NCBI RefSeq assembly: GCF_000025945.1
Contig: NC_006138.1
Location: 2,850,001-2,882,000 of the forward strand
Source: Desulfotalea psychrophila LSv54
GTDB taxonomy: Bacteria > Desulfobacterota > Desulfobulbia > Desulfobulbales > Desulfocapsaceae
Direction: 5' to 3'
DNA length: 32,000 bases
Shown: piece after piece, positions 3,768 to 24,606 of the stretch
Numbering within the stretch: position 1 is the stretch's first letter
Layout: the number at the start of each line of letters is the position of its first letter
The notes under the pieces: model-generated
Database searches by the model: none
The model's input: only the letters and a program-made list of their open reading frames with translations
Told to the model about the DNA's origin: nothing
Translations under genes and position numbers: made by a program

Positions 3768-3779
3768 GTGCCTGCACTT

Positions 3780-3854
3780 GGCCCCATCGTCTAGCGGTTA
3801 GGACGTTGGCCTCTCACGCCGAAAGCAGGGGTTCGATTCCCCTTGGGGTCACCA
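3780..3854 (+). tRNA. tRNA-Glu: tRNA-Glu (anticodon CTC), CCA encoded
   Basis: 75-nt cloverleaf. Acceptor GGCCCCA/TGGGGTC, anticodon stem TTGGC/GCCGA with loop CT-CTC-AC, T arm GGGGTTCGATTCCCC, and a 3' ACCA. Confidence 0.95.
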
Positions 3855-3863
3855 AGTTGAAAA

Positions 3864-3898
3864 GGGTTCTAGCAATTTAATTGCTAGAACCCTTTTTT
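3864..3898 (+). terminator. Intrinsic terminator of tRNA-Glu copy 1
   Basis: 12-13 bp perfect stem GGGTTCTAGCAA.../...TTGCTAGAACCC followed by TTTTTT. Confidence 0.8.
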
Positions 3899-7014: not shown

Positions 7015-8334
7015 TCACAGAACCGTACGTACGGGCCTCGTATACGGCTCCTGTTTACTTACATCCCTATCTGGGACAAGAATTCCGGTTTTCACAGCTG
7101 ATACATCAAACAGCCAAAGCTCTTTGTGTAAATAACAGCTCGGCAGTGCATAATGGGCAAGAGGACAGGCAGAGTTCGCCCATGAGTTCATCTTAATAAA
7201 TTTGAACTCTCCCTTATACCCTAGTTGGCGTAATCGCCGGTGTAACTTACCGGCCTTCTTCCAGAGCTTTAACTGGATTGCACGGAGACGTCTCCGTAAC
7301 CAACTAGACACAGCCTTTAACATGTTTTTACAATTTGCTATCCTAAAATAGAAAGCAAAACCGCGTAGAATAGGATTCAAGCCATCAATGACTGCTTCCA
7401 AATTCTTTCCACCATTTCGACGAGTCAACGCCTTCACCTTCTCCTTGAACGACCTGATTTTCGCCTTTTGGATACGAGTGTACTTAGAGTGTATTGAAAC
7501 ACCAAGGAAAGCCACTCCGCTCCGACTATGGCAAATGTGAGTCTTTTCGAGGTTTACAGTGAGTAGCAACCCTTTCTCAAGGAAACAGCTTGCCTGTAAA
7601 AGTGCGTTTTTGGCTGCGCTTTTCGAACTGCACAAAATCAGGATATCATCGGCATAGCGCACTATCCTATGACCTCGTTCTCTCATAAACTGGTCAAACT
7701 GATCAAGATAGATATTGGCAATTAGCGGACTAATCACACCGCCCTGCGGACTACCAACTTCGCTTGCCTGCCATCCTTCGTCTGTCATCACTCCACTTTT
7801 CAGAATTTTCTGAAGTAGCCCAAGTATTGATCCATCCTTGATTCGCCTCGATATAGAGGACAAGATCAAATCGTGGTCTAAGGTGTCAAAGCATTTCGAC
7901 AGATCCATGTCCACAACCCACTTCCTATCATATTTCCGTATGAACATCGTAGCTTTAGTAATCGCCTGATGGCAACTTCGCCCCGGGCGATAGCCGTAGC
8001 TTGATGGATGAAAGCCGGGATCAAATATCGGCTGTAGAATATCCAGCAGAGCCTGCTGTACTACACGGTCACGAACTGCAGGAATTCCGAGCAACCTTAC
8101 CCCGCCATTCGTTTTGGGAATTTCCACCCTACGAACAGGTTGAGGTTGGTAGCTCTTCTCACGCAGTTCCGTCAGAAGCCGGTCAAGATTGATATCAAGG
8201 GATTCAACAAAATCTTTGACGGACTGGCCATCTATACCGGCAGCTCCATTCGCAGACTTTACCTTAAAAAACGCTGAGCGCAATGCACTTCGGCTCAACA
8301 GTCTCCCATATAAACTATACCAAATCTTTACCAT
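7015..8334 (-). CDS. Group II intron reverse transcriptase/maturase (intron-encoded protein)
   Basis: 439-aa ORF with RT motifs (GIDGQS, RRVEIPKTNGGVRLLGIP, DRVVQQAL, DLSKCFDTLDH, SPQGGVISPLIANIYL, RYADDILIL) and a maturase/X region. No HNH/En motifs at the C-terminus. Confidence 0.95.
   Translation of the reverse strand: MVKIWYSLYGRLLSRSALRSAFFKVKSANGAAGIDGQSVKDFVESLDINLDRLLTELREKSYQPQPVRRVEIPKTNGGVRLLGIPAVRDRVVQQALLDILQPIFDPGFHPSSYGYRPGRSCHQAITKATMFIRKYDRKWVVDMDLSKCFDTLDHDLILSSISRRIKDGSILGLLQKILKSGVMTDEGWQASEVGSPQGGVISPLIANIYLDQFDQFMRERGHRIVRYADDILILCSSKSAAKNALLQASCFLEKGLLLTVNLEKTHICHSRSGVAFLGVSIHSKYTRIQKAKIRSFKEKVKALTRRNGGKNLEAVIDGLNPILRGFAFYFRIANCKNMLKAVSSWLRRRLRAIQLKLWKKAGKLHRRLRQLGYKGEFKFIKMNSWANSACPLAHYALPSCYLHKELWLFDVSAVKTGILVPDRDVSKQEPYTRPVRTVL
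7020..7050 (-). ncRNA. Group II intron domain V (catalytic hairpin)
   Basis: The minus strand reads GAGCCGTATACGAGGCCCGTACGTACGGTTC. This matches the conserved DV consensus (GAGCCGUAU...ACGUACGGUUC). Domain VI follows at about 6972-7016 with a bulged branch-point A. Confidence 0.85.
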
Positions 8335-9114
8335 TTCCTGCCTTGTGGCCTCTATCCCCTACAAATTCTTTCTAGGCACCGATTCTTCACATGAGCAGTA
8401 TCGCCTTCTAGCCCTTCGGCAATGTACGATTCCACATTCACGTTACTCCGATGAGCGGCCAAAATCAGCAGACTACCTGTTACAGTCAACCACCGAAAAA
8501 GTGCCCTGTTCCGTCGAACAACTTGTGCTCTGCCTAAAAAGTATTGCAAGTCTTCAAGGTCTCTTTAAATAAACTTCACCCCTTCGCAACTGATATGGCT
8601 TTTGGCACATAACAGTCCCCAACCATCAAAGGTCGGGTCATCCTGGTTTTACCCTCCACACTGTTACCAGCTTTCACAGGCCTGGACTTAATAACTACTA
8701 CGGGATCATCTGCCATCTCACAAAGCTTCGCTTCTGCTCAGGTCACCCCTTGCCATCAGCTATCCTGTAAAAAATTCTAGGAACTCTATAAGACTTCCCC
8801 GGTTAAGGCGAACTCCCTGTGAGCAATCGCATCCTCAAACACGATACGGGACTGACCAAGTATTGGGCTTTACGCTATTTTGCACGTTTACCCTCCCGCA
8901 TCGCCGAATCAGGTTCGCTTGCGCTATGTACCACTCACTTCCTATCGCTTCCTTTAGACCCTGCCGTTACCAACAACGCCCTTACGATTCGGATTGTCTT
9001 CCCCTTGGTCGGGGTGACGCCTGCTTACCGCAGGCTGGGTTTGCCCGCCATGCCGGGCAAACAAAACAGCAGCGGACAGGAGGCCTGCCCACTGCAAAAA
9101 GATTGCAAGAGGGG

Positions 9115-9534
9115 CTAATTCTTAGTTTGCACCAACTCCTTGTATGGCCAGCCACCCATGCCATTTTCAAGGATCATCATTTTTTCAGCCGGAACATTTT
9201 TTGATTCCATATAGTCATAGCAGCGCTTTGCCCCACTCTTCCCACCAGGACAGACCACAACAACCGGACTGCCGCTCTGCTCATAGAGCTTAACAGCCTG
9301 ATCAATTCTTGCCCGTTCCACATCACTTTTGACAGGATAGGCATAGGTGGCAACGGAGCCTGGCAGATGATGCCTGTTAAATTCCTTTTCCACCTGAATA
9401 TCAACAATAATCATGGCACTACCGACGGCAAGATTCTCCTTCACCTGCTTGGCTGATATGTAATTGTAATTTCCGGCAAAAGATGTTGAAGCTACACAGA
9501 GCAGACAAAATACAATGGCAATAATACGTTTCAT
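9115..9534 (-). CDS. Periplasmic single-domain rhodanese-like sulfurtransferase
   Basis: Start taken at the ATG at 9534 (MKRIIAIVFCLLCVASTSFAG, a signal peptide) with an AGGAG RBS. Rhodanese fold pattern (IIVDIQ..EF...HLPGS) and an active-site-like loop VVVVCPGGKSGAKR. Confidence 0.8.
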   Translation of the reverse strand: MKRIIAIVFCLLCVASTSFAGNYNYISAKQVKENLAVGSAMIIVDIQVEKEFNRHHLPGSVATYAYPVKSDVERARIDQAVKLYEQSGSPVVVVCPGGKSGAKRCYDYMESKNVPAEKMMILENGMGGWPYKELVQTKN

Positions 9535-9955
9535 TCTAAACACTCTCCTTTTCACTATTTTCCATAAACAACTGATACTAATACAGGATGAGCACTCTAC
9601 CCCATAGTTTCTACCAGTACCAATTGGAATAGCGGATAACAACAGCGACTCATATAGAAAAGGGCAATGCCACGAAACCCTATCCCCTGACAGACCTGGC
9701 TCCTAACTGAAATATTTGCGACAAGTGCACAACAGAATCTACTAGCCGGCCCACCCCTTAGTAAGTCAATTATTAAATGAATTTTGTCTGCATTATTGCG
9801 TAAGCCTTCTGAATATGTTCAGTCTCTCTCTATTCATACAATCGTAATCAGTATCAATAGCCCTGAATCTTGGGACTGTTAAATCGACAATGAACCCTTT
9901 GAATAGCCCGAGCAAAGTGCTCTTCTGCCACTTACACCAACCATAAGGAAAAATA

Positions 9956-10585: not shown

Positions 10586-11049
10586 CCCCTCTGTTGATTT
10601 AATGACAAGATCCAAACCTCATGACCTAACGACACCGCAGCGAGCTGCTCTCCACCCCCACAAAATGTCACTTTAAGCTGCGAAAAACATTTGGTTGTTT
10701 ACTCTAATGACCGCCAGAGTTATTATCCTAAAAGTAACTGATATCATGGCATGTAACGGGCTGAGAAGATGGCAGGAGCAAAACTTAGCGGACCTGCATG
10801 GATTGAAAATAATGTCTTTTCGGAGGAACGCTTGGCTATATAGCCAAATACAACAAAGTGTTATGCTATATTCAGGCGATAGCTATCTGGGACGCCTCAC
10901 AAGTGAAGGTGCCATAATTGCCCTCAACACCTGGATCTCTGGCGTGAGGCAACACTGTCCGCCTGCTACCAAGGCTTTAGGGAAATCTATTTACCAATAT
11001 CCGGTATTTTTCCGGGACTTTAATCAACAACAACATAGTGGAGAGGTAC

Positions 11050-11430
11050 ATGAATAATTTCAATCAAGTATTGCAGGAAATGGATTTTGACTTTCTGGGC
11101 GCAGGTAAGCACTCGATGAGTGTCGAGGCAATGCGTAAGGCACTGGGCAACGACCACTTCCTCTTTCTGGATGTGCGCACGGAGTCAGAGCGAGACTATC
11201 TCAGGCTTCCATTTGCAAGCCATATCCCCTTAAGTGAACTACCGACACGCCTAAAAGAACTGCCTCAAGAGAAATGTATTGTCCCCTTCTGCTCTTCAAT
11301 TTTTCGTGGGGCAGTGGCCTACACCTATCTTCGGGGCAATGGATTCAAAGAGGTTAAAATCCTCACGGCAAGCATGGAAGATATTGTTTCAGCCTTCAAA
11401 CCCGGACCACTGGCCAAAATGTTAGCCTAA
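11050..11430 (+). CDS. Cytoplasmic rhodanese-like domain protein
   Basis: ATG at 11050 preceded by a GGAGAGG RBS. Rhodanese pattern (LFLDVRTESERDYLRLPFASHIPLSELP) and a catalytic-type loop FCSSIFRG. Confidence 0.8.
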   Translation: MNNFNQVLQEMDFDFLGAGKHSMSVEAMRKALGNDHFLFLDVRTESERDYLRLPFASHIPLSELPTRLKELPQEKCIVPFCSSIFRGAVAYTYLRGNGFKEVKILTASMEDIVSAFKPGPLAKMLA

Positions 11431-11490
11431 AAATAGCCCCGAAAAGTTCACCTAATAATGCTGATAGTTGATAGAAAAAGGTAGGTCGTG

Positions 11491-12240
11491 ATGGATGTTA
11501 CATGCTTAATTATTGTCGTTGTTGCCTTTTCCCTGAGTTTTGTCTTTGCTCTGGGAGGAATCGGTTCTGCCCTGGCACTTATTCCCAGTTTAACCTGGCT
11601 GGGTCTTCCATTTGCCCAGGCGAGGGCAATCGGCCTCTTTGTCAATACAGTGAGTATGGCCGGGGCGACCTACTCCAATATAAGGAACAGGCGTCTTGAT
11701 TTTCGTCTGGGAATCCCCATCATTCTCCCATCGATTATCCTTGCACCGGTGGGAGCATGGACGGGACATTTTATAGAGACGCGCTACCTGCTTATGGTCT
11801 TTATCGCCTTTCTTTCTTTCTCCGGGTTGATGATGCTGCTGTTCAAGGGATCGAAATACGCAAATCAATACCGGGAAGACAGACCCATTACCGGCCCCCT
11901 GCTGACGGGGATTGCAGCAGGCTTTCTCTCGGGACTGCTGGGGGTAGGTGGGGGGGGACTCATTTCACCGCTTATGATTCTGCAGGGATTCAACCCGAAA
12001 AAAGTTGCGGCAATAACAGCCTTTGCCGTCCCCTTCTCTTCACTTTCGGCATTTATCACCTATGCCCTTATGGGCTCTGTCCCCTGGGGGATTCTCCTCT
12101 ATGCAGGGCCTGCAGCATGGCTGGGTGGTTATCTTGGCACCATGGTCATGCACCAAAAAATGCACCCTGGAACCGTCAAAAAATTTCTTGGGGTGGTTCT
12201 TCTATTGCTCGCCTTGCGCTTCATCCTTTCAATCTCTTAA
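11491..12240 (+). CDS. TauE/SafE (TSUP, DUF81) family sulfite/organosulfonate exporter
   Basis: About 249-aa polytopic membrane protein with the two-repeat TSUP pattern (GGIGSALALIP... and GLLGVGGGGLISPLMIL). The start at 11491 (ATG) or 11488 (GTG) is uncertain. Confidence 0.87.
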   Translation: MDVTCLIIVVVAFSLSFVFALGGIGSALALIPSLTWLGLPFAQARAIGLFVNTVSMAGATYSNIRNRRLDFRLGIPIILPSIILAPVGAWTGHFIETRYLLMVFIAFLSFSGLMMLLFKGSKYANQYREDRPITGPLLTGIAAGFLSGLLGVGGGGLISPLMILQGFNPKKVAAITAFAVPFSSLSAFITYALMGSVPWGILLYAGPAAWLGGYLGTMVMHQKMHPGTVKKFLGVVLLLLALRFILSIS

Positions 12241-12264: not shown

Positions 12265-12300
12265 AAAAAAGTGCATGCTCTAAATTCATAGAGCATGCAC
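12265..12300 (-). terminator. Intrinsic terminator of the dehydratase-like/activase operon
   Basis: Perfect 12-bp stem GTGCATGCTCTA (12271-12282) / TAGAGCATGCAC (12289-12300). A U-run follows on the minus strand (A6 at 12265-12270 on the + strand). Confidence 0.7.
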
Positions 12301-12309
12301 AGATAGCAA

Positions 12310-13062
12310 TTAGCCCAGATCAAGGGCCAAAAGGGCAGCACCAAAGGCACCTATATACTGAGGATTCTCCGGGACAAGGATGGTACGTTCTAGCTTTTCA
12401 GCGAGCAACTGAACGATACAGCTATTTTTTGCCACCCCACCGGTAAAGACAATATCGCCCTCGCGGGAGACACGGTTCACCATCCCCGCTGCTCGCCGCA
12501 CCACACTATCGTGAAGGCCACGAGCAATATCACAACGGTTCTCTCCCCTGGCAATAAGAGATGTCACCTCAGATTCGGCAAAGACCGTACACATACTGGA
12601 GACATGGACATCACTCCCGCCGCTTAGGGCCTGCGCCCCGAAATCGGCTATAGCAAAGCCCAGGGCCCTGGACATAATTTCAAGAAACTTGCCCGTACCT
12701 GCCGCACAACGGTCATTCATCTCGAATTTTTTCACCCTGCCATTTGCCAGAAGCGAAATGGCCTTGCTATCCTGACCACCTATATCGATCACTGACAGGG
12801 CCTCTGGAAAGAAATGCCTGGCCCCCCGGGCATGGGCCTTTATCTCCGTCACCGTTGCCGCATCGAAGGAAATTTCAAAAAGATTACGTCCATAGCCCGT
12901 AGCCATCATACGGTCATAAGAGACATCATGAAGCATTTTCCCGGCCTCAAGCAGAGGATCAAAGCCCGTATCCCCTTGCATACTCTGCACCAGATTACCG
13001 GCTTCATCAAGCACCACCAGCTCAATACTTCGAGAGCCTATATCAATTCCTGCAAAATGCAT
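12310..13062 (-). CDS. BcrAD/BadFG/HgdC-type ATPase (activase of 2-hydroxyacyl-CoA-dehydratase-like enzymes)
   Basis: ASKHA-fold motifs (GIDIGSRSIELVV, DIGGQDSKAI, NDRCAAGTGKFLE with the cluster-bridging Cys, FTGGVAKN). ATG at 13062 lies 16 nt after the upstream stop, with a GGGGGAA RBS. Confidence 0.9.
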   Translation of the reverse strand: MHFAGIDIGSRSIELVVLDEAGNLVQSMQGDTGFDPLLEAGKMLHDVSYDRMMATGYGRNLFEISFDAATVTEIKAHARGARHFFPEALSVIDIGGQDSKAISLLANGRVKKFEMNDRCAAGTGKFLEIMSRALGFAIADFGAQALSGGSDVHVSSMCTVFAESEVTSLIARGENRCDIARGLHDSVVRRAAGMVNRVSREGDIVFTGGVAKNSCIVQLLAEKLERTILVPENPQYIGAFGAALLALDLG

Positions 13063-13077
13063 CTGTTCCCCCAATAA

Positions 13078-14355
13078 TTAGCGAAGCTGTTCAACAAAGG
13101 CCTCAACCCGAGTTTTAAGCTGTCCCATATCTTCCATGCTGTAGTCAGTTTCAAGACGAAGGCAGGGAATCCCCACCTCCTCAAGGCTATTCTCCACCGG
13201 CACAGCCTCCATCAAATAGGGCTGACAGAACTGCAAGCCATAGTGAATAACCCCATCTGCGCCATAGGATTCAACCATCTCTCTAATATGGTCACGACGC
13301 TCACCATTGGGGGTGAAAATGGCACAGTCAACGGCAAAGTATCTATCAACAATGGCATCCATCATTTCAGCAACACTCTCCCCGGATTCATCGGTCAAAT
13401 TACGGGTTCCACGTTCACCTACACAGGATTCCTCACCGACAATAACAGCGCCAAGACCTTCAATGATCATGGGAAGTTTCCAATTTGGCACAGCCTGAGG
13501 ACAACCGGAAATCAAAATACGCGGAGTTCGCGGAGCTGAAACACCCCGTTTTTCGGCAACGCGTTTTTCCAACTCATCACAGAGAAGATGAACAGATTCG
13601 GTAAAACGCTGTGGATTATCATAGAAGAAAATCTGATTGGCCAGGAGGGAATCAAGTCCGGAGATGGGAGCGGGATCAGCCTTACGCAGGGCAAGAAGAC
13701 GATGCATTGCCGCCCGCTTTTTATTAACCAAGACGATGGCATCCCGTAAACTCTCGGCGGTAATCTTCACCCCGGTAAGTACCTCTACCGCATCTTTAAA
13801 ACGAAGATATTCCGCCTTCAAGAGTTCCCGACCCTGGGCAGATTTCACCTGGGGCAAATCCATTATATAGAGGTTGTCAACAAGACCACCAAGGGTTTCA
13901 TAGGCCTTCTTCTTACCATCACAGGTATTCTCTCCAACAACCATATCTGCACTTTCAAGATAAGGGCAGACCTTGGCCAGCTTGAAACCAAAGGATGATT
14001 TAATCAGGGCACAGGTATTTCGGGGCAAGAGCCTCTCGACCTCTTCCATGGCAAAATCGGCACCGGAGCAGAGTCCCACCAGGGTAGCATTGGCAGCAAG
14101 GGCAATTTCTTCGGGGACAAAAACACAGTAGGAGCCAATTATCTTCCGCCCCTCTCTCTTTTCATCCATCAGCTCCTTAATACGCAGACCATGCACCTCG
14201 CTCATAACAAAATCAAAATAGGCCATTGCCTCCGGACGATTTTTCTGAGCCAGATAAATGTCCCTATAGGCATCACCCAAAACAGCAAGCAGGGCATCAT
14301 GTCCCTCTAAATCCACCCCAAGATCCTGCCACATGGCCCGGTAATCTTCACTCAT
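13078..14355 (-). CDS. 2-hydroxyacyl-CoA dehydratase family protein, single-subunit (double-cubane-cluster-protein-like)
   Basis: About 425-aa ORF (ATG 14355, AGGAG RBS). HAD/BcrC-family pattern with 11 Cys, including GSYCVFVPEE, NTCALIKS, KVCPY, ENTCDGKKK, ISGCPQ, EESCVG, VDCAI and LQFCQPY. No second dehydratase subunit gene is adjacent. Confidence 0.85.
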   Translation of the reverse strand: MSEDYRAMWQDLGVDLEGHDALLAVLGDAYRDIYLAQKNRPEAMAYFDFVMSEVHGLRIKELMDEKREGRKIIGSYCVFVPEEIALAANATLVGLCSGADFAMEEVERLLPRNTCALIKSSFGFKLAKVCPYLESADMVVGENTCDGKKKAYETLGGLVDNLYIMDLPQVKSAQGRELLKAEYLRFKDAVEVLTGVKITAESLRDAIVLVNKKRAAMHRLLALRKADPAPISGLDSLLANQIFFYDNPQRFTESVHLLCDELEKRVAEKRGVSAPRTPRILISGCPQAVPNWKLPMIIEGLGAVIVGEESCVGERGTRNLTDESGESVAEMMDAIVDRYFAVDCAIFTPNGERRDHIREMVESYGADGVIHYGLQFCQPYLMEAVPVENSLEEVGIPCLRLETDYSMEDMGQLKTRVEAFVEQLR

Positions 14356-14612
14356 TACATATCTCCTATTGAAAATAATTTTCACGGATTACCCCTGAGG
14401 ATAATTACTAAAAAAAAGAAAAAGTTCACAGAGGGGAGATTTAATACGTATCGAGCCACAAATCTAACAGGAAATACCTATGGCGCACAGCCCTACTATA
14501 GGAAATACAAATTACTATAATTACTGATTTTTTTACAGAGGAGAGAAATGATGACTCTGGCTGGTCTGGTGCTGAAAAGACCAGACCAGCCAGAGGGCGA
14601 ACAAAACTGCTC

Positions 14613-14688
14613 TTAGCCTATGGGCAGAACGGTTCTTTCAAACTGCTCATTAATAATCTCTGCCATGGCAAGATAGATGGCTCTCGCT
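14613..14688 (-). pseudogene. Remnant of the C-terminal 24 codons plus stop of a second satP/yaaH-like gene
   Basis: 76 nt align at roughly 85-90% identity (by eye) with the 3' end of the intact satP gene at 19374-19449. It would encode ARAIYLAMAEIINEQFERTVLPIG*. An in-frame TGA lies upstream and there is no start codon. Confidence 0.75.
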
Positions 14689-14775: not shown

Positions 14776-14809
14776 AAAAAAAAGGGCCGACCTAAATATA
14801 GGTCGGCCC
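14776..14809 (-). terminator. Intrinsic terminator downstream of the permease gene
   Basis: Stem GGGCCGACC (14784-14792) / GGTCGGCCC (14801-14809), followed on the minus strand by a U8 run (A8 at 14776-14783). Confidence 0.8.
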
Positions 14810-14833
14810 TTCATACTGTTCTATGTTTATTCT

Positions 14834-16292
14834 TTATTGACCTAGAATAGCAGGTATACCTGGAAGCTGACCAACAAGAGCCAGCGATCCAACACAGATA
14901 ACAAACGCAATCCCTGGGATAATCAGTCTATCTTTGAGAGAAAGTTCACTTGCACGTTCATGGTCACCAATGAGTCCCATATTATCAAGAAGCATAGTAG
15001 TTGCCCAACCAAAAACAGGGTTAACAATGGCACAAGCAAAGATACAGATACCAGCACTAAGGGAATCTTTTTGCTTATTTACCATTTGCATACCAGCTTC
15101 AAGAAGTGGCAAGAAAACACCAACTATGAGAGCTACGCGGAGTACAGGTTCCCACATCGCAAGATCCATCGGATATCCAGTAACAGAGGCAACAACACAG
15201 AGTAGACCTGTAAGAAGTGCACCACCCGGAATAGGGCGCTTAGCAATTGCTGCAGGGATCATATAGGTTCCCCAAGACGAAGCAAGGTTACCACCACCAA
15301 GAACTGAACCAACACCTTGACGAACAGAAGCAATAGTCATGGTATCATCAACATCCATCAATACGCCTTCGGCATCTTTTTGGGTAGTTAAGTTCTTGGA
15401 AAACACGATGGCCGAGATAATCAGGAGACCACATTGCAACGGCAAGCAAAGCAAAAGGAGTTACCGCAATAAATTGGTTAAGATTAGGCCATCCAAGCTG
15501 CCAACCAGTAGTTTCGCCCCACCAGTAAAGTGGACTCATGTGTGGAAGACCTGGAGTTGTAGTAAAATGAAACTCTGCACCAAGTGCAAAAGCAACAACA
15601 CCAGCAATAATAGAACAAACAGGAATTGCAACCCAACGAAGTTTAAGCTTAGCAAGATATGCATAAATCAAAAGGGTAATTCCAATTACAGCAAATGAAA
15701 TATAACCCTGGTCTGTTGAAGCAGCCCAGGCTTCAAGTTTACCAATTTGGCCAATAAGACCAACAGCACCCAGATAAATCAAGAGCCCGCCACGAACACC
15801 AACACCAGTCAGCGTCATTAGCTTAGAGCCACCCTTCGTAAAGGCGAGTATCAGTCCAAAAAATGCCACCATTAAACCGAGAGACAAGGGGTGCCCACCT
15901 GCTGCTGCAATCAGAGGGATGAGCGGAATCATCGGCCCATGGGTCCCCGCAAGATTGGCATTCGGCATAAGAAGAGCAGAAAAGAGAATAACAAAAAGTG
16001 CCCCTATGAGAAGCTCCCAGCGTACGTTCTCGGCAACAAAAGCGGCATCTAAACCATACTCTGTTGCAAAAACAGCTACCATAGCGGTAACCATAACAAC
16101 CTTTCCGATTGTTGCCGCAAGTGCAGGAACCCAATCTTCCAGCTCCACTCCCCAATCACGGATAGGAAGGTTAAATCTCCAACGCTTAAAGCTCATGATT
16201 TTAAGTTCATGATCCAGATACTCAGATCTTTTCTCAAACTCATGGGCTTTTTTGCGCATATCTTTGTAAAACTTTTTTTCCTCTTTAGCCAT
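14834..16292 (-). pseudogene. Putative polytopic permease (NCS2/SulP-like; family uncertain), reading frame broken once
   Basis: ORFs 15348-16292 and 14834-15454 are both highly hydrophobic and overlap in different frames. Joining them at the A5 run (T5 at 15377-15381 on +) gives one roughly 485-aa protein reading ...FQELNYPK|DAEGVLMDVDD... Confidence 0.75.
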
Positions 16293-16501: not shown

Positions 16502-19084
16502 ATGAAAATATCAGATCATGCAGACCACACAGAAAAACTTTTCGGAATTCGCGGAGAAGACATCCATAAATGGATGGATGGCTTCTTCGAACATGATGGC
16601 GTTGATCATTATTTACGTAACAATGGCAAGATAGCAGATTACAACCCATATGATCATCGAAAATTTCGCCATTGTCAAGAAGTTTTGGCAGAGGCTTATG
16701 ACGAATTTACGGGGATATACGAGAAGCGGGATATAAAAAATATTTTCGAAACTCATATCAAGGATGATTATAACGGATATATTCCGACTAGAAATGACTT
16801 TGAAAACAGTATGTTTACCGAAAAATATCATGATTCTTTGCACCAAGATAATTGGAATCCAATCCTAGATTCAGAAGAATTATCTGACTACTTCGAAGGA
16901 GTAAAAAATTATGACGAATATAAAAGGCCAAATCATTTTATAACCACTTTCGGGATGCGTATTGTTATCCCAACAGTGGTTGCTATTATCCTCTTTGTGA
17001 CATCTATCTTCTTTGTTGTGGTTCCAGTTATTGAAACCTCTATAATGAACCAAAAGCGAAAGATGATCAAAGAGTTAACCGTTTCAGCCATCTCAATTGC
17101 CGAGCAGTATATTTCCTTAAGTAAAAATGCTGTACTTTCTGAAAAAGATGCACAGAAACGCGCTGCAAAAGAGATCGAATCAATGCGCTATGGTGATCAA
17201 CATAAAGATTATTTCTTTATAACTGATATGACACCTAGGATGATTATGCATCCATACCGTCAAGAATTGATTGGCACAAATTTAAACGACTATACGGATA
17301 CAGAAAACAAGAGTGGAAAGCGTCTCTTTGTCGAGCTTGTCGACTTGGTTAAAAAAAATCACGAGGGATATCTTGAATATCAGTGGCAATGGAAAGATGA
17401 CAGTAGCACATCAGTCCCGAAACTTTCTTATGTGCGTGGAATTCCAGAGTGGGGATGGGTTGTTGGAACTGGTGTATATATAAATGATGTAAAAGAAGAG
17501 ATAGCACGCCTTAAAAGACATCTATATATCACTTTTCTGATCATTACTTTTGGACTAATTTTGGTGATGAGCTATATCATTTACCAAAGCCACAATATCG
17601 AGGCTAGAAAGAAAAAAGCTGAAATTCTTCTACATGAAGCAAAGGATCGATACAGAGCTCTCGTTGAAACTTCAAATGAGGGTTACATATTGGAAGCTGA
17701 AGGAAAGATTATATATTCCAATCAGAGGCTTATACGAATGATTGGTTATAGTGAACGAGAGCTTCATGACCATACTATTTGGAGTACCCTGTTTCCACAA
17801 AAACCTCTTAACATGCCTGTATTACAACATTTAATTAGCATATTCCATGGAGCAGCAGAACCTGCAGAGTTTGAGGCACAGTTATTGACCAAAGACGGAC
17901 AAGAGATTGATATTATTTTAAGTACTTCAAAAATATTTTTATCTGAAAAAAAGGGGCACGTTATATCTTTTCGCCCTATAACGAGAAAAATCTATAGTGG
18001 AGCTATCCCTTTTGAGAAAGATGTTACTAACTACAGGGGACTTACCAGTGAAGTTGTACGCCTGATTGAAGAAAGTGAAACAGCAGGCAGTGTTGTAGAG
18101 GCACTCAACAGAATGCCAAACTTGATTAGAACAATGATTGATGCGGGATCTAGACCAGGTAATCTACGTCGTGTAATTGGTGGTGCTTATGACGCAGCTA
18201 TCACCAAATTTATAGAGCTTTCAATAGAAGAATTAGGAAATCCACCTGTAGAATTTTCCTTTATGTCAATGGGATCAAATGCACGTCATGATATGACTCT
18301 TTTCTCTGACCAAGATAATGCAATTGTTTTTGAAGACTGCGCTGTAGGTGATCTCAAGAAAATACGACGATATTTTTTACACCTTGCCGAGCGAGTGTGT
18401 AAAAGACTGGACCAAGCAGGCTACTCATACTGTGATGGCTGGATTATGGCTACTAATCCACAATGGTGCTTGAGCATGACTGAGTGGAAGAAAAACTTTA
18501 CCCATTGGATCATAAACTCTAGTCCCGATGCCATATTAGAAGCCAATGTTTTTTTTGATGTGCGCTCCACCTATGGCACAGCAAAATTGGTTGATCAGTT
18601 ACAACAACACGTCTTTGAAACAAACAGAAAGCACGAGCAATTTTTTGTAAACTATGCCAAAAATTGCCTCTCCTACGCCCAACCACTTAATACAAAGGGA
18701 CAAATTAAGACACAGGTAAATGATGGGGTCCGCTCTGTGAACCTCAAAGAGTGCCTGAGGCCGATGGAAATTTTTTGTAGAATTTATGCTCTTAAGTATG
18801 ACATTCGCGAAGCTAATACTATTACTCGACTTAAAAAATTGGCGCAAAGGGGAGATATATCAAGAAAAGAATATCGTGAGATGGTCTATATTTTTGACCA
18901 TATCTGGAATTTGCGATTTATGAATCAAATCATAGAATACACTGATTTAAGAAGGGTTAATGACTCTCTGGACCTTGATGAGTTACCGCAAATAGAGCAA
19001 GAAAATCTTAAAAATGTGTTAGCGAGAATCTCTATTTTCCGGGACAAGGTGAGTAGGGATTTTCTTGAAGGTCCTCAAAATTAG
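16502..19084 (+). CDS. Membrane sensor protein: N-terminal His-rich domain, TM, single Cache domain, TM, PAS, DUF294 nucleotidyltransferase plus DUF294_C
   Basis: 860-aa ORF. TM segments at about aa 146-177 and 341-361 bracket a Cache-like domain (MRYGD..DYFFI.D....IMHP....IG.NL........G......L......EGYLEYQW........PKLSYV..IPEWGWVVGTGVYI). A PAS-like region covers aa ~380-495. The NTase motif is MGSNARHDMTLFSDQDN (aa 589-606). The helical C-terminal domain is typical of DUF294_C. Confidence 0.85.
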   Translation: MKISDHADHTEKLFGIRGEDIHKWMDGFFEHDGVDHYLRNNGKIADYNPYDHRKFRHCQEVLAEAYDEFTGIYEKRDIKNIFETHIKDDYNGYIPTRNDFENSMFTEKYHDSLHQDNWNPILDSEELSDYFEGVKNYDEYKRPNHFITTFGMRIVIPTVVAIILFVTSIFFVVVPVIETSIMNQKRKMIKELTVSAISIAEQYISLSKNAVLSEKDAQKRAAKEIESMRYGDQHKDYFFITDMTPRMIMHPYRQELIGTNLNDYTDTENKSGKRLFVELVDLVKKNHEGYLEYQWQWKDDSSTSVPKLSYVRGIPEWGWVVGTGVYINDVKEEIARLKRHLYITFLIITFGLILVMSYIIYQSHNIEARKKKAEILLHEAKDRYRALVETSNEGYILEAEGKIIYSNQRLIRMIGYSERELHDHTIWSTLFPQKPLNMPVLQHLISIFHGAAEPAEFEAQLLTKDGQEIDIILSTSKIFLSEKKGHVISFRPITRKIYSGAIPFEKDVTNYRGLTSEVVRLIEESETAGSVVEALNRMPNLIRTMIDAGSRPGNLRRVIGGAYDAAITKFIELSIEELGNPPVEFSFMSMGSNARHDMTLFSDQDNAIVFEDCAVGDLKKIRRYFLHLAERVCKRLDQAGYSYCDGWIMATNPQWCLSMTEWKKNFTHWIINSSPDAILEANVFFDVRSTYGTAKLVDQLQQHVFETNRKHEQFFVNYAKNCLSYAQPLNTKGQIKTQVNDGVRSVNLKECLRPMEIFCRIYALKYDIREANTITRLKKLAQRGDISRKEYREMVYIFDHIWNLRFMNQIIEYTDLRRVNDSLDLDELPQIEQENLKNVLARISIFRDKVSRDFLEGPQN

Positions 19085-19373: not shown

Positions 19374-19931
19374 TTAACCTATGGGCAAAACGGTTCTGCC
19401 ATACTGCTCATTAATAACCTCTGCCATGGCAAGATAAATGGCACTCGCTCCACAGACAATTCCTTCCCAACCGGCAATATGACCAAGGGCCACAGAACCG
19501 GTCCAGTTATGGGCCGCAAGCAGAAAAAAGAGTACGGTCAGGGAGAAAAATATAAATTGCAGAACACGGTTGCTCTTAAGAGAAGCAATGAACATAAAAA
19601 AGGTGAAAATACCCCAGAGAGCCAGATACCAGCCCATAAATGCATGGGGAGTACTCTCTGTAATACCAAGCTTTGGCATAATAATAAGGGCCACAAGGGT
19701 GAGCCAAAAATGACCATAGGAGATAAAGGCCGTCATGCCAAAGGTGTTGCCCTTACGGAACTCCAGGATACCGGCGATAATCTGTGCTATACCACCATAG
19801 AGCAGCCCCATGGCCAAAATCATAGCGCTTATCGGGAAAAATCCCGCGTTATGGATATTCAACAAAACCGTGGTCATACCAAAGCCCATCAGGCCAAGCG
19901 GTCCTGGATTTGCAAGCTTATATTCCGTCAT
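19374..19931 (-). CDS. satP: Succinate-acetate/proton symporter, GPR1/FUN34/YaaH family
   Basis: 185-aa, six-TM protein with the family signature (ANPGPLGL.GFG.TT..LN, EF..GNTFG.TAF.SYG.FW). Confidence 0.93.
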   Translation of the reverse strand: MTEYKLANPGPLGLMGFGMTTVLLNIHNAGFFPISAMILAMGLLYGGIAQIIAGILEFRKGNTFGMTAFISYGHFWLTLVALIIMPKLGITESTPHAFMGWYLALWGIFTFFMFIASLKSNRVLQFIFFSLTVLFFLLAAHNWTGSVALGHIAGWEGIVCGASAIYLAMAEVINEQYGRTVLPIG

Positions 19932-24471: not shown

Positions 24472-24485
24472 CGTCCTCAGCACTT

Positions 24486-24560
24486 GGCCCCATCGTCTAG
24501 CGGTTAGGACGTTGGCCTCTCACGCCGAAAGCAGGGGTTCGATTCCCCTTGGGGTCACCA
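24486..24560 (+). tRNA. tRNA-Glu: tRNA-Glu (anticodon CTC), second identical copy
   Basis: 75 nt identical to 3780-3854. The 6 nt upstream (CACTTG) are also shared. Confidence 0.95.
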
Positions 24561-24570
24561 AGATACTAAA

Positions 24571-24606
24571 GGGACTTAGCAATTAACTTGTTAAGTCCCT
24601 TTTTTT
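24571..24606 (+). terminator. Intrinsic terminator of tRNA-Glu copy 2
   Basis: Stem GGGACTTAGCAA / TTGTTAAGTCCC (one G-U pair) followed by a T7 run. Confidence 0.8.

Follow-up and report, generated by a model that had tools for sequence, protein, structure and literature searches.

A two-gene locus of Desulfotalea psychrophila that very probably encodes a double-cubane cluster protein and its ATP-dependent reductase, with a tentative selenium lead from orthologous loci

The stretch of DNA analyzed here, hereafter the window, comprises 32,000 nucleotides of the Desulfotalea psychrophila LSv54 genome (NC_006138.1, positions 2,850,001 to 2,882,000). Two adjacent genes on its minus strand very probably form a self-contained bicistronic operon for a double-cubane cluster protein (DCCP) and its cognate reductase (DCCP-R), the ATPase that passes electrons to it. 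The reference system is that of Carboxydothermus hydrogenoformans (CHY_0487/CHY_0488, PDB entries 6ENO and 7YYL; Jeoung & Dobbek 2018, 2022), with which the D. psychrophila pair shares both the gene order and the NF040772 equivalog. For this pair, the family membership, the set of cluster ligands, the gene pairing and the operon boundaries are in hand, and the 32 kb contain neither a second subunit gene nor coenzyme A (CoA)-related genes. In agreement with the first-pass annotation, a single HGD-D-type gene of about 425 amino acids (aa) with 11 Cys codons is followed downstream by an HgdC-type activase gene. The elements of this unit are as follows.

14362..14367, minus strand: Shine-Dalgarno-like AGGAGA, 6 nt 5' of the DCCP ATG (sequence reading)
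13078..14355, minus strand: DCCP gene, long form (class I), 425 aa (PF06050, NF040772, PDB alignment, Cys conservation)
13063..13077, minus strand: 15-nt spacer, with GGGGGA preceding the activase ATG (sequence reading)
12310..13062, minus strand: DCCP-R (ASKHA "archerase"/activase) gene, 250 aa from its ATG (PF01869, TIGR00241, PDB matches)
12271..12300, minus strand: intrinsic terminator at the end of the two-gene unit, directly after the activase stop (12-bp stem, 6-nt loop, T6 tail)
14781..14812, minus strand: terminator of the upstream broken DUF3360 gene (14-bp stem and T-run)

The family assignment of the larger protein is carried by profile scores, by alignment to proteins of known structure and by individual residues. 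PF06050 spans the protein with an E value of 1.2e-117 (profile positions 1–342 of 342), consistent with a predicted two-domain HGD-D fold, and the equivalog model NF040772, named for the "double-cubane-cluster-containing anaerobic reductase", returns 464.9 bits against a cut-off of 350 (profile positions 4–372 of 372). In contrast, the equivalog models of related enzymes all fail, with 103 bits versus a cut-off of 700 for HadC (NF052456), 83.7 versus 453.8 for BzdN and 53.8 versus 421 for BcrC. The best matches in the PDB are the C. hydrogenoformans DCCP structures 7YYL and 6ENO (E = 1e-138), followed by BzdN, MbdN and HadC at E values of 1e-22 to 1e-15. The 425-aa protein and its 421-aa counterpart are 51% identical from end to end, with residues 4–424 aligned to residues 3–421 and two 1-residue indels over 419 columns. 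Two forms of DCCP have been described, a class I form and a short YjiM-like class (PMC7317905). Judged from its alignment, which includes the N-terminal 60 residues, the window protein is of the long class I form and is not YjiM-like. The reading frame is open over 13078–14385 and offers a longer alternative with a GTG start at 14385; the ATG at 14355 was used, and the resulting MSEDYR N-terminus is common to all orthologues and to the NCBI protein.

Of the 11 Cys residues, seven belong to the DCCP motif (Cys77, 96, 115, 145, 311, 344 and 377) and align with positions 76, 95, 114, 144, 309, 341 and 374 of the C. hydrogenoformans chain. In that protein, six of the motif residues ligate the cluster and the seventh, termed Cys94, sits beside it (PMC7317905). 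The literal published Cys-spacing expression matches neither the window protein nor, by our count, the C. hydrogenoformans sequence, and alignment was used instead. When 241 homologues of the long form, drawn from Desulfobacterota and Firmicutes, are aligned, the seven residues are unchanged in 240–241 sequences. Cys130 and Cys259 are conserved as well, which brings the number of invariant or nearly invariant Cys residues to nine, and Cys285 and Cys398 are lineage-specific; these four residues distinguish the D. psychrophila protein from that of C. hydrogenoformans. An alignment of the cluster ligands had been proposed earlier as a check on the assignment, and since every one of them is present, the protein cannot be set aside for lack of ligands. 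The assignment itself is not new. An identical (100%) protein has an entry in NCBI/RefSeq, already under the name [quoted passage not shown], so the label "orphan" that the first-pass annotation had given it is to be dropped. The nearest orthologues are 81–82% identical, and Desulfobacterota orthologues at 72–82% identity are very common (at least 588 of 600 candidate stretches were confirmed).

The smaller protein is an ASKHA ATPase of the BcrAD/BadFG family (PF01869, 182 bits, E = 2e-53) that exceeds the cut-off of TIGR00241 (220.1 bits versus 125.4) and falls below those of the BcrA (132 versus 578), BzdQ (115 versus 380) and BcrD (112 versus 313) equivalog models. In the C. hydrogenoformans DCCP-R, Cys115 and Cys152 are the ligands of a [4Fe-4S] cluster held between the subunits (PMC9351452). 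Both residues are kept in the window protein, where Cys119 (in NDRCAAGTG) and Cys158 (in SSMCTVFAESE) align with them and are predicted to ligate a dimer-bridging [4Fe-4S] cluster. The features expected of a DCCP-R are accordingly present in the protein, namely an ASKHA domain above cut-off and two ligand Cys residues per monomer, and with the adjacent ATPase gene, the larger protein has the equivalog score, the predicted fold, the seven Cys residues, the length and the partner of a DCCP.

The organization of the locus is that of a compact unit. The interval from the DCCP stop codon to the activase start codon reads TAA-TTATTGGGGGAACAG-ATG and measures 15 nt, one fewer than the 16 nt given in the first-pass annotation, and the two genes are probably co-transcribed. 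The terminator that had been ascribed to the pair is borne out by folding: the segment 12300–12271 has a free energy of −21.3 kcal/mol (z = −6.1), and 0 of 200 shuffled sequences fold equally well. Since terminators stand on both flanks, the pair is an insulated two-gene unit. The earlier observation that no gene for a second subunit or for CoA metabolism is nearby also stands: searches with both proteins (tblastn) over all frames of the 32-kb window returned no further PF06050 or activase gene, and Pfam scans found no CoA-transferase or CoA-ligase domain among its large open reading frames (ORFs). An Rfam scan found no riboswitch or other leader 5' of the operon.

By homology to the C. hydrogenoformans system, a mechanism can be proposed in which the homodimeric state, the cluster type and the coupling to ATP are inferred by analogy. 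In C. hydrogenoformans, both DCCP and DCCP-R are homodimers, and DCCP-R occupies a position on the DCCP two-fold axis; dithionite reduces the [4Fe-4S] cluster of DCCP-R and leaves the double cubane oxidized, electrons pass to the [8Fe-9S] cluster only with ATP hydrolysis, and the reduced double cubane in turn reduces acetylene, hydrazine and azide (PMC7317905, PMC9351452). In D. psychrophila, the DCCP-R homodimer would likewise hold one [4Fe-4S] cluster that bridges its two subunits through Cys119 and Cys158 and that a ferredoxin or flavodoxin would reduce. DCCP-R would then dock on the two-fold axis of the DCCP homodimer, where ATP hydrolysis and product release would provide the drive for an uphill transfer of the electron to the [8Fe-9S] double cubane. 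The ligands of the latter would be Cys77, 115, 145, 311, 344 and 377, with Cys96 beside the cluster, and the super-reduced cluster would reduce a small substrate arriving through a narrow channel. The sequence of the window holds nothing that argues against a mechanism of this type.

Several points weigh against the reading of the locus as a DCCP/DCCP-R operon. The best PDB matches of the ATPase are HadI (7.5e-52), MbdQ (2.3e-51), HgdC (6e-46) and the DCCP-R chain 7YYL_E (3.6e-45). The protein thus scores slightly higher against HadI and MbdQ than against DCCP-R and is no closer to the latter than to the former two, so its assignment as DCCP-R rests on adjacency and not on sequence specificity. 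What is said of the homodimeric state, the composition of the cluster and the coupling to ATP is carried over from a homologue with 51% identity. Finally, a search of 14356–14615, upstream of the DCCP gene, gave no sigma-70-like promoter.

Comparison with related systems places the pair within a broader superfamily. Unlike C. hydrogenoformans, a thermophilic Firmicute, the host is a psychrophilic sulfate reducer of the Desulfobacterota, in which the pair is known from sequence. The short-form, candidate class II DCCP of Escherichia coli, YjiM with its partner YjiL, shares the NF040772 family and the pairing with an activase; YjiM (388 aa), however, is without the channel-closing helices, whereas the alignment of the window protein covers the long form in full. 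The class I benzoyl-CoA reductases BzdN/BzdO and MbdN/MbdO share the PF06050 fold, and BzdN carries an [8Fe-9S] cluster that is charged by ASKHA ATPases. These enzymes, in contrast, are heterodimers in which a subunit of its own holds the [4Fe-4S]-OH2 active site; their substrate is a CoA ester, and two different ATPase subunits serve them. The similarity of BzdN and MbdN to the window protein is at the level of E = 1e-22, and the window protein stays below the cut-offs of the equivalog models. With the dehydratase systems HadBC/HadI, HgdAB/HgdC and FldBC/FldI, the superfamily is shared by both components, and the window activase is closest to HadI. The dehydratases differ in being heterodimers whose subunits each hold one [4Fe-4S] or [4Fe-5S] cluster, in an activation that is catalytic rather than stoichiometric and in the CoA-transferase genes of their loci; neither a second subunit gene nor CoA-transferase genes are seen at the D. 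psychrophila locus.

The genomic context was compared across 80 orthologous Desulfobacterota loci, taken with flanks of up to 10 kb per side from genomes that serve as species-level representatives. The activase gene lies downstream of the DCCP gene and on the same strand in 74 of the 80 loci (within 50 nt in 52) and is the only neighbor conserved across the set; three Firmicutes loci also have a same-strand downstream activase. Other genes recur near the pair in parts of the set (loci are cited by their numbers, L, in this analysis). A second, short-form PF06050 gene (about 380 aa, YjiM-like) with the same Cys spacing is found near the long-form gene in 13 loci (L002, L005, L032, L037, L041–L043, L046, L050, L051, L058, L059 and L069) and is absent from the window. 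In L032 and L069 this gene stands between the DCCP and activase genes, which suggests that the two DCCP classes share one reductase. A 168-aa family without a Pfam or NCBIfam match adjoins the pair in 26 of the 80 loci, often just 5' of the DCCP gene (for example L005 4892–5509, L006 7681–8241 and L054 9390–9887), and a MauE/DoxX-type membrane protein together with a rhodanese bearing a signal peptide lies beside the pair in 8 loci (L016, L031, L036, L045, L049, L061, L074 and L075). In Thermincola potens (L083), a divergent gene at 9213–9761 that weakly resembles 2-thiouracil desulfurase-like families (PF04463) adjoins the DCCP pair; enzymes of the TudS type are distant relatives in the same Fe-S superfamily (PMC11971306). 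Three loci for which gene calling gave no DCCP ORF (L020, L021, L026) were suspected of hiding a selenocysteine-containing DCCP with an in-frame TGA; translation gave intact ORFs, and the apparent lack was an artefact of the gene caller.

The genes that flank the pair in the window itself, listed below, are those named in the first-pass annotation: a rhodanese and a TauE gene on one side, and a satP remnant and a broken permease on the other.

11038–11430, plus strand: rhodanese (Pfam scan)
11488–12240, plus strand: TauE, ending 70 nt from the activase stop (Pfam scan)
14613–14688, minus strand: 76-nt remnant of a satP 3' end, in the intergenic region 5' of the DCCP gene
14834–16292, minus strand: split gene for a DUF3360 membrane protein, as overlapping ORFs 15348–16292 (profile positions 4–328) and 14834–15454 (319–503)
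19374–19931, minus strand: intact satP paralogue, 4.8 kb from the remnant

The rhodanese and TauE genes are transcribed convergently to the DCCP pair. The satP remnant encodes a 24-aa C-terminal piece (14616–14687) with 83% amino acid and 89% nucleotide identity to the intact satP, and the split DUF3360 gene is a probable frameshift pseudogene or sequencing error. No homologue of the window rhodanese (11038–11430), TauE, DUF3360 or TenA lies within 10 kb of the pair in the 80 loci. A secreted rhodanese is encoded at 9115–9642 (minus strand), 2.7 kb from the DCCP pair; it has one match among the 80 loci and is weakly similar (E about 1e-5) to the rhodaneses of the 8 loci with MauE/DoxX-type proteins.

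These data bear on three other explanations of the locus. The larger protein could belong to a heteromeric PF06050 enzyme of the dehydratase or benzoyl-CoA reductase type, given that the fold is common to HadB/C, HgdA/B and BzdN/O and that a second PF06050 gene accompanies the DCCP gene in 13 orthologous loci; moreover, BzdN also carries an [8Fe-9S] cluster, and cluster type alone is therefore no proof of a homodimer. This explanation is nevertheless highly improbable. A single PF06050 gene is present in the window, neither a partner gene nor a CoA-transferase or CoA-ligase gene was found in the 32 kb, and two genes stand in place of the four-subunit set of a benzoyl-CoA reductase of class I. 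The DCCP model passes where the HadC, BzdN and BcrC models fail, a result that also speaks against placing the protein in a heteromeric clade, and the PDB match is 1e-138 for DCCP versus 1e-22 or worse for the heteromeric enzymes. The sole conserved neighbor in the 80 loci is the activase, and the second PF06050 genes found elsewhere themselves show the DCCP Cys spacing, like YjiM. The first-pass conclusion that the pair is a DCCP with an ATP-dependent reductase, rather than a heteromeric enzyme, is upheld by the NF040772 score, the 51% identity to the C. hydrogenoformans protein and the retention of the seven Cys residues. That the pair is instead a decaying, pseudogenized relic is scarcely credible, even with a satP remnant, a split DUF3360 gene and a group II intron nearby, as both ORFs are full length with every invariant Cys retained, the DCCP remains 81–82% identical to its nearest orthologues, and the ribosome-binding site and terminator are intact.

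The remaining explanation, implied by the first-pass annotation, holds that the rhodanese-TauE pair, satP and DUF3360 cooperate with the DCCP pair in handling a substrate that contains sulfur or a carboxylate. The TauE gene does end close to the activase stop, and the theme of a rhodanese with a membrane protein recurs, in the form of the non-homologous MauE and secreted rhodanese genes, in 8 loci. Such cooperation is nonetheless unlikely: transcription is convergent with a strong terminator between the units, homologues of rhodanese, TauE, DUF3360 and TenA occur within 10 kb in 0 of the 80 loci, and the 24-aa satP remnant is not functional, nor probably is the frameshifted DUF3360 gene. The reductions of S(0), thiosulfate and sulfite are not known to need a potential beyond that of ferredoxin, a further point against a sulfur substrate. 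The "sulfur-transfer and transport neighbourhood" of the earlier description is specific to D. psychrophila, separated by a terminator and partly decayed; the window neighbors are unusable for inferring the substrate. The comparison of Desulfobacterota neighborhoods that the first-pass annotation had proposed thus supports the pairing with an activase (74 of 80) and not the rhodanese/TauE/DUF3360 context (0 of 80). A DCCP/DCCP-R operon stands as the very probable reading of the locus, and the chalcogen theme among its orthologues is set by selenium-utilization genes and not by the genes seen in the window.

In 30 of the 80 loci, selB, selD, yedE or yedF lies within 10 kb of the DCCP pair, often directly adjacent, and at least one of the four is found in 18 of the 44 loci with full flanks; when the IscA/HesB "Se" subfamily is added, the count rises to 37 of 80. 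Loci with selenium genes include L004, L008, L009, L016, L020, L026, L029, L037–L040, L043, L045, L056, L068, L073, L076, L079 and L080. Gene families were checked with curated models (YedF, TIGR03527, 215 bits; YedE, TIGR04112, 480; SelD, TIGR00476, 361; SelB, TIGR00475, 292), and IscA_HesB_Se (NF038090), TusA (PF01206) and DUF3343/Se_S_carrier (PF11823) were identified with the models given. Several arrangements are seen: selB with its end no more than about 150 nt from the start of the DCCP gene; DCCP and activase followed by a 72-aa Cys-rich ORF and yedF; DCCP and activase followed by selD and yedF; and DCCP and activase followed by yedE, TusA, DUF3343 and a YjeF_C-like gene. The 72-aa Cys-rich protein is encoded between the activase and yedF or selD in 12 loci (for example L020 12122–12340). 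Within 1 kb of the pair, the density of the four genes is 8.9 per 100 kb; at 8–10 kb it has dropped to about 0–1 per 100 kb, compared with a rough chance estimate of about 0.08 per 100 kb for four single-copy genes in a 5-Mb genome. The linked loci are scattered over 26 of 67 DCCP groups formed at 90% identity.

A selenium association has been published before. The Haft 2022 preprint, in which NF040772 was built, found by phylogenetic profiling that 955 of 970 high-scoring DCCPs occur in SelD-containing genomes, and it discusses the processing of selenium compounds or a Se-bridged cofactor as the role of DCCP; a preprint of 2023 depicts DCCP and DCCPR as genes of "putative selenium metabolism". 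The operon-level adjacency and the decay with distance in Desulfobacterota are corroboration of this association rather than its discovery. From this gene linkage in orthologues, and not from the content of the window, the best lead to a substrate is a selenium species, such as Se(0) in elemental form or bound to a protein, whose reduction would give SelD its selenide.

The potential of the Se(0)/HSe− couple is close to −0.7 V, lower than ferredoxin can reach, and this would account for the requirement for ATP. It is possible, though doubtful, that the pair serves selenium assimilation as an ATP-driven reductase working at very low potential, one that converts Se(0) or carrier-bound selenium (perselenide, selenotrisulfide) to selenide for SelD, elemental or carrier-bound Se(0) being the form that would be expected in sulfidic habitats. 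On this reading, the D. psychrophila pair would have become detached from the sel and yed genes, and its rhodanese and TauE neighbors might take over the parts of carrier and transporter. Several results tell against the selenium lead. The four-gene linkage is absent within 10 kb in 50 of the 80 loci, a search of the 32-kb window found no selenium-related genes, and none were found near the Firmicutes DCCPs of Carboxydothermus islandicus, Desulfosporosinus youngiae and Thermincola potens. The co-occurrence of DCCP and SelD could also merely mirror shared anaerobic lifestyles. The selenium link might alternatively be structural, with SelD supplying selenium for a Se-bridged double cubane, [{Fe4S4}2(mu-Se)], which Haft lists as a formal possibility. 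The near-universal co-occurrence of DCCP with SelD and the position of selD directly downstream of the pair in several loci would suit such a role, but it is very unlikely: the C. hydrogenoformans DCCP made in E. coli was modeled with a sulfide bridge and is active, and yedE, yedF, TusA and DUF3343 resemble a route of selenium uptake and trafficking to SelD and not a system of cofactor maturation.

The window contains further features at a greater distance from the pair. A group II intron occupies 7015–8976 (minus strand), with a maturase ORF at 7015–8334 (RVT_1 and GIIM) and an Rfam group-II D1-D4 domain at 8808–8976. Two tRNA-Glu(CTC) genes (3780–3854 and 24486–24560) lie in 125-nt direct repeats (3774–3898 and 24480–24604, plus strand) that are 20.7 kb apart and bracket the region with the DCCP pair; the interval between the repeats showed no integrase. 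A large sensor protein with Cache, PAS and DUF294 nucleotidyltransferase domains is encoded at 16502–19084 (plus strand), with the broken DUF3360 gene on one side and satP on the other.

Few complex iron-sulfur cofactors occur outside nitrogenase, and DCCPs carry one of these; the question of their physiological role, standing since 2018, is still posed in papers of 2022 and 2025. The window adds one more, already annotated, member to a characterized family. Its closest Desulfobacterota orthologues lie directly beside selB, selD, yedE, yedF, TusA and DUF3343 genes, and the comparison of these loci turns the published genome-level correlation with SelD into a testable operon-level hypothesis, in which DCCP and its reductase may serve in the reduction of a selenium species.

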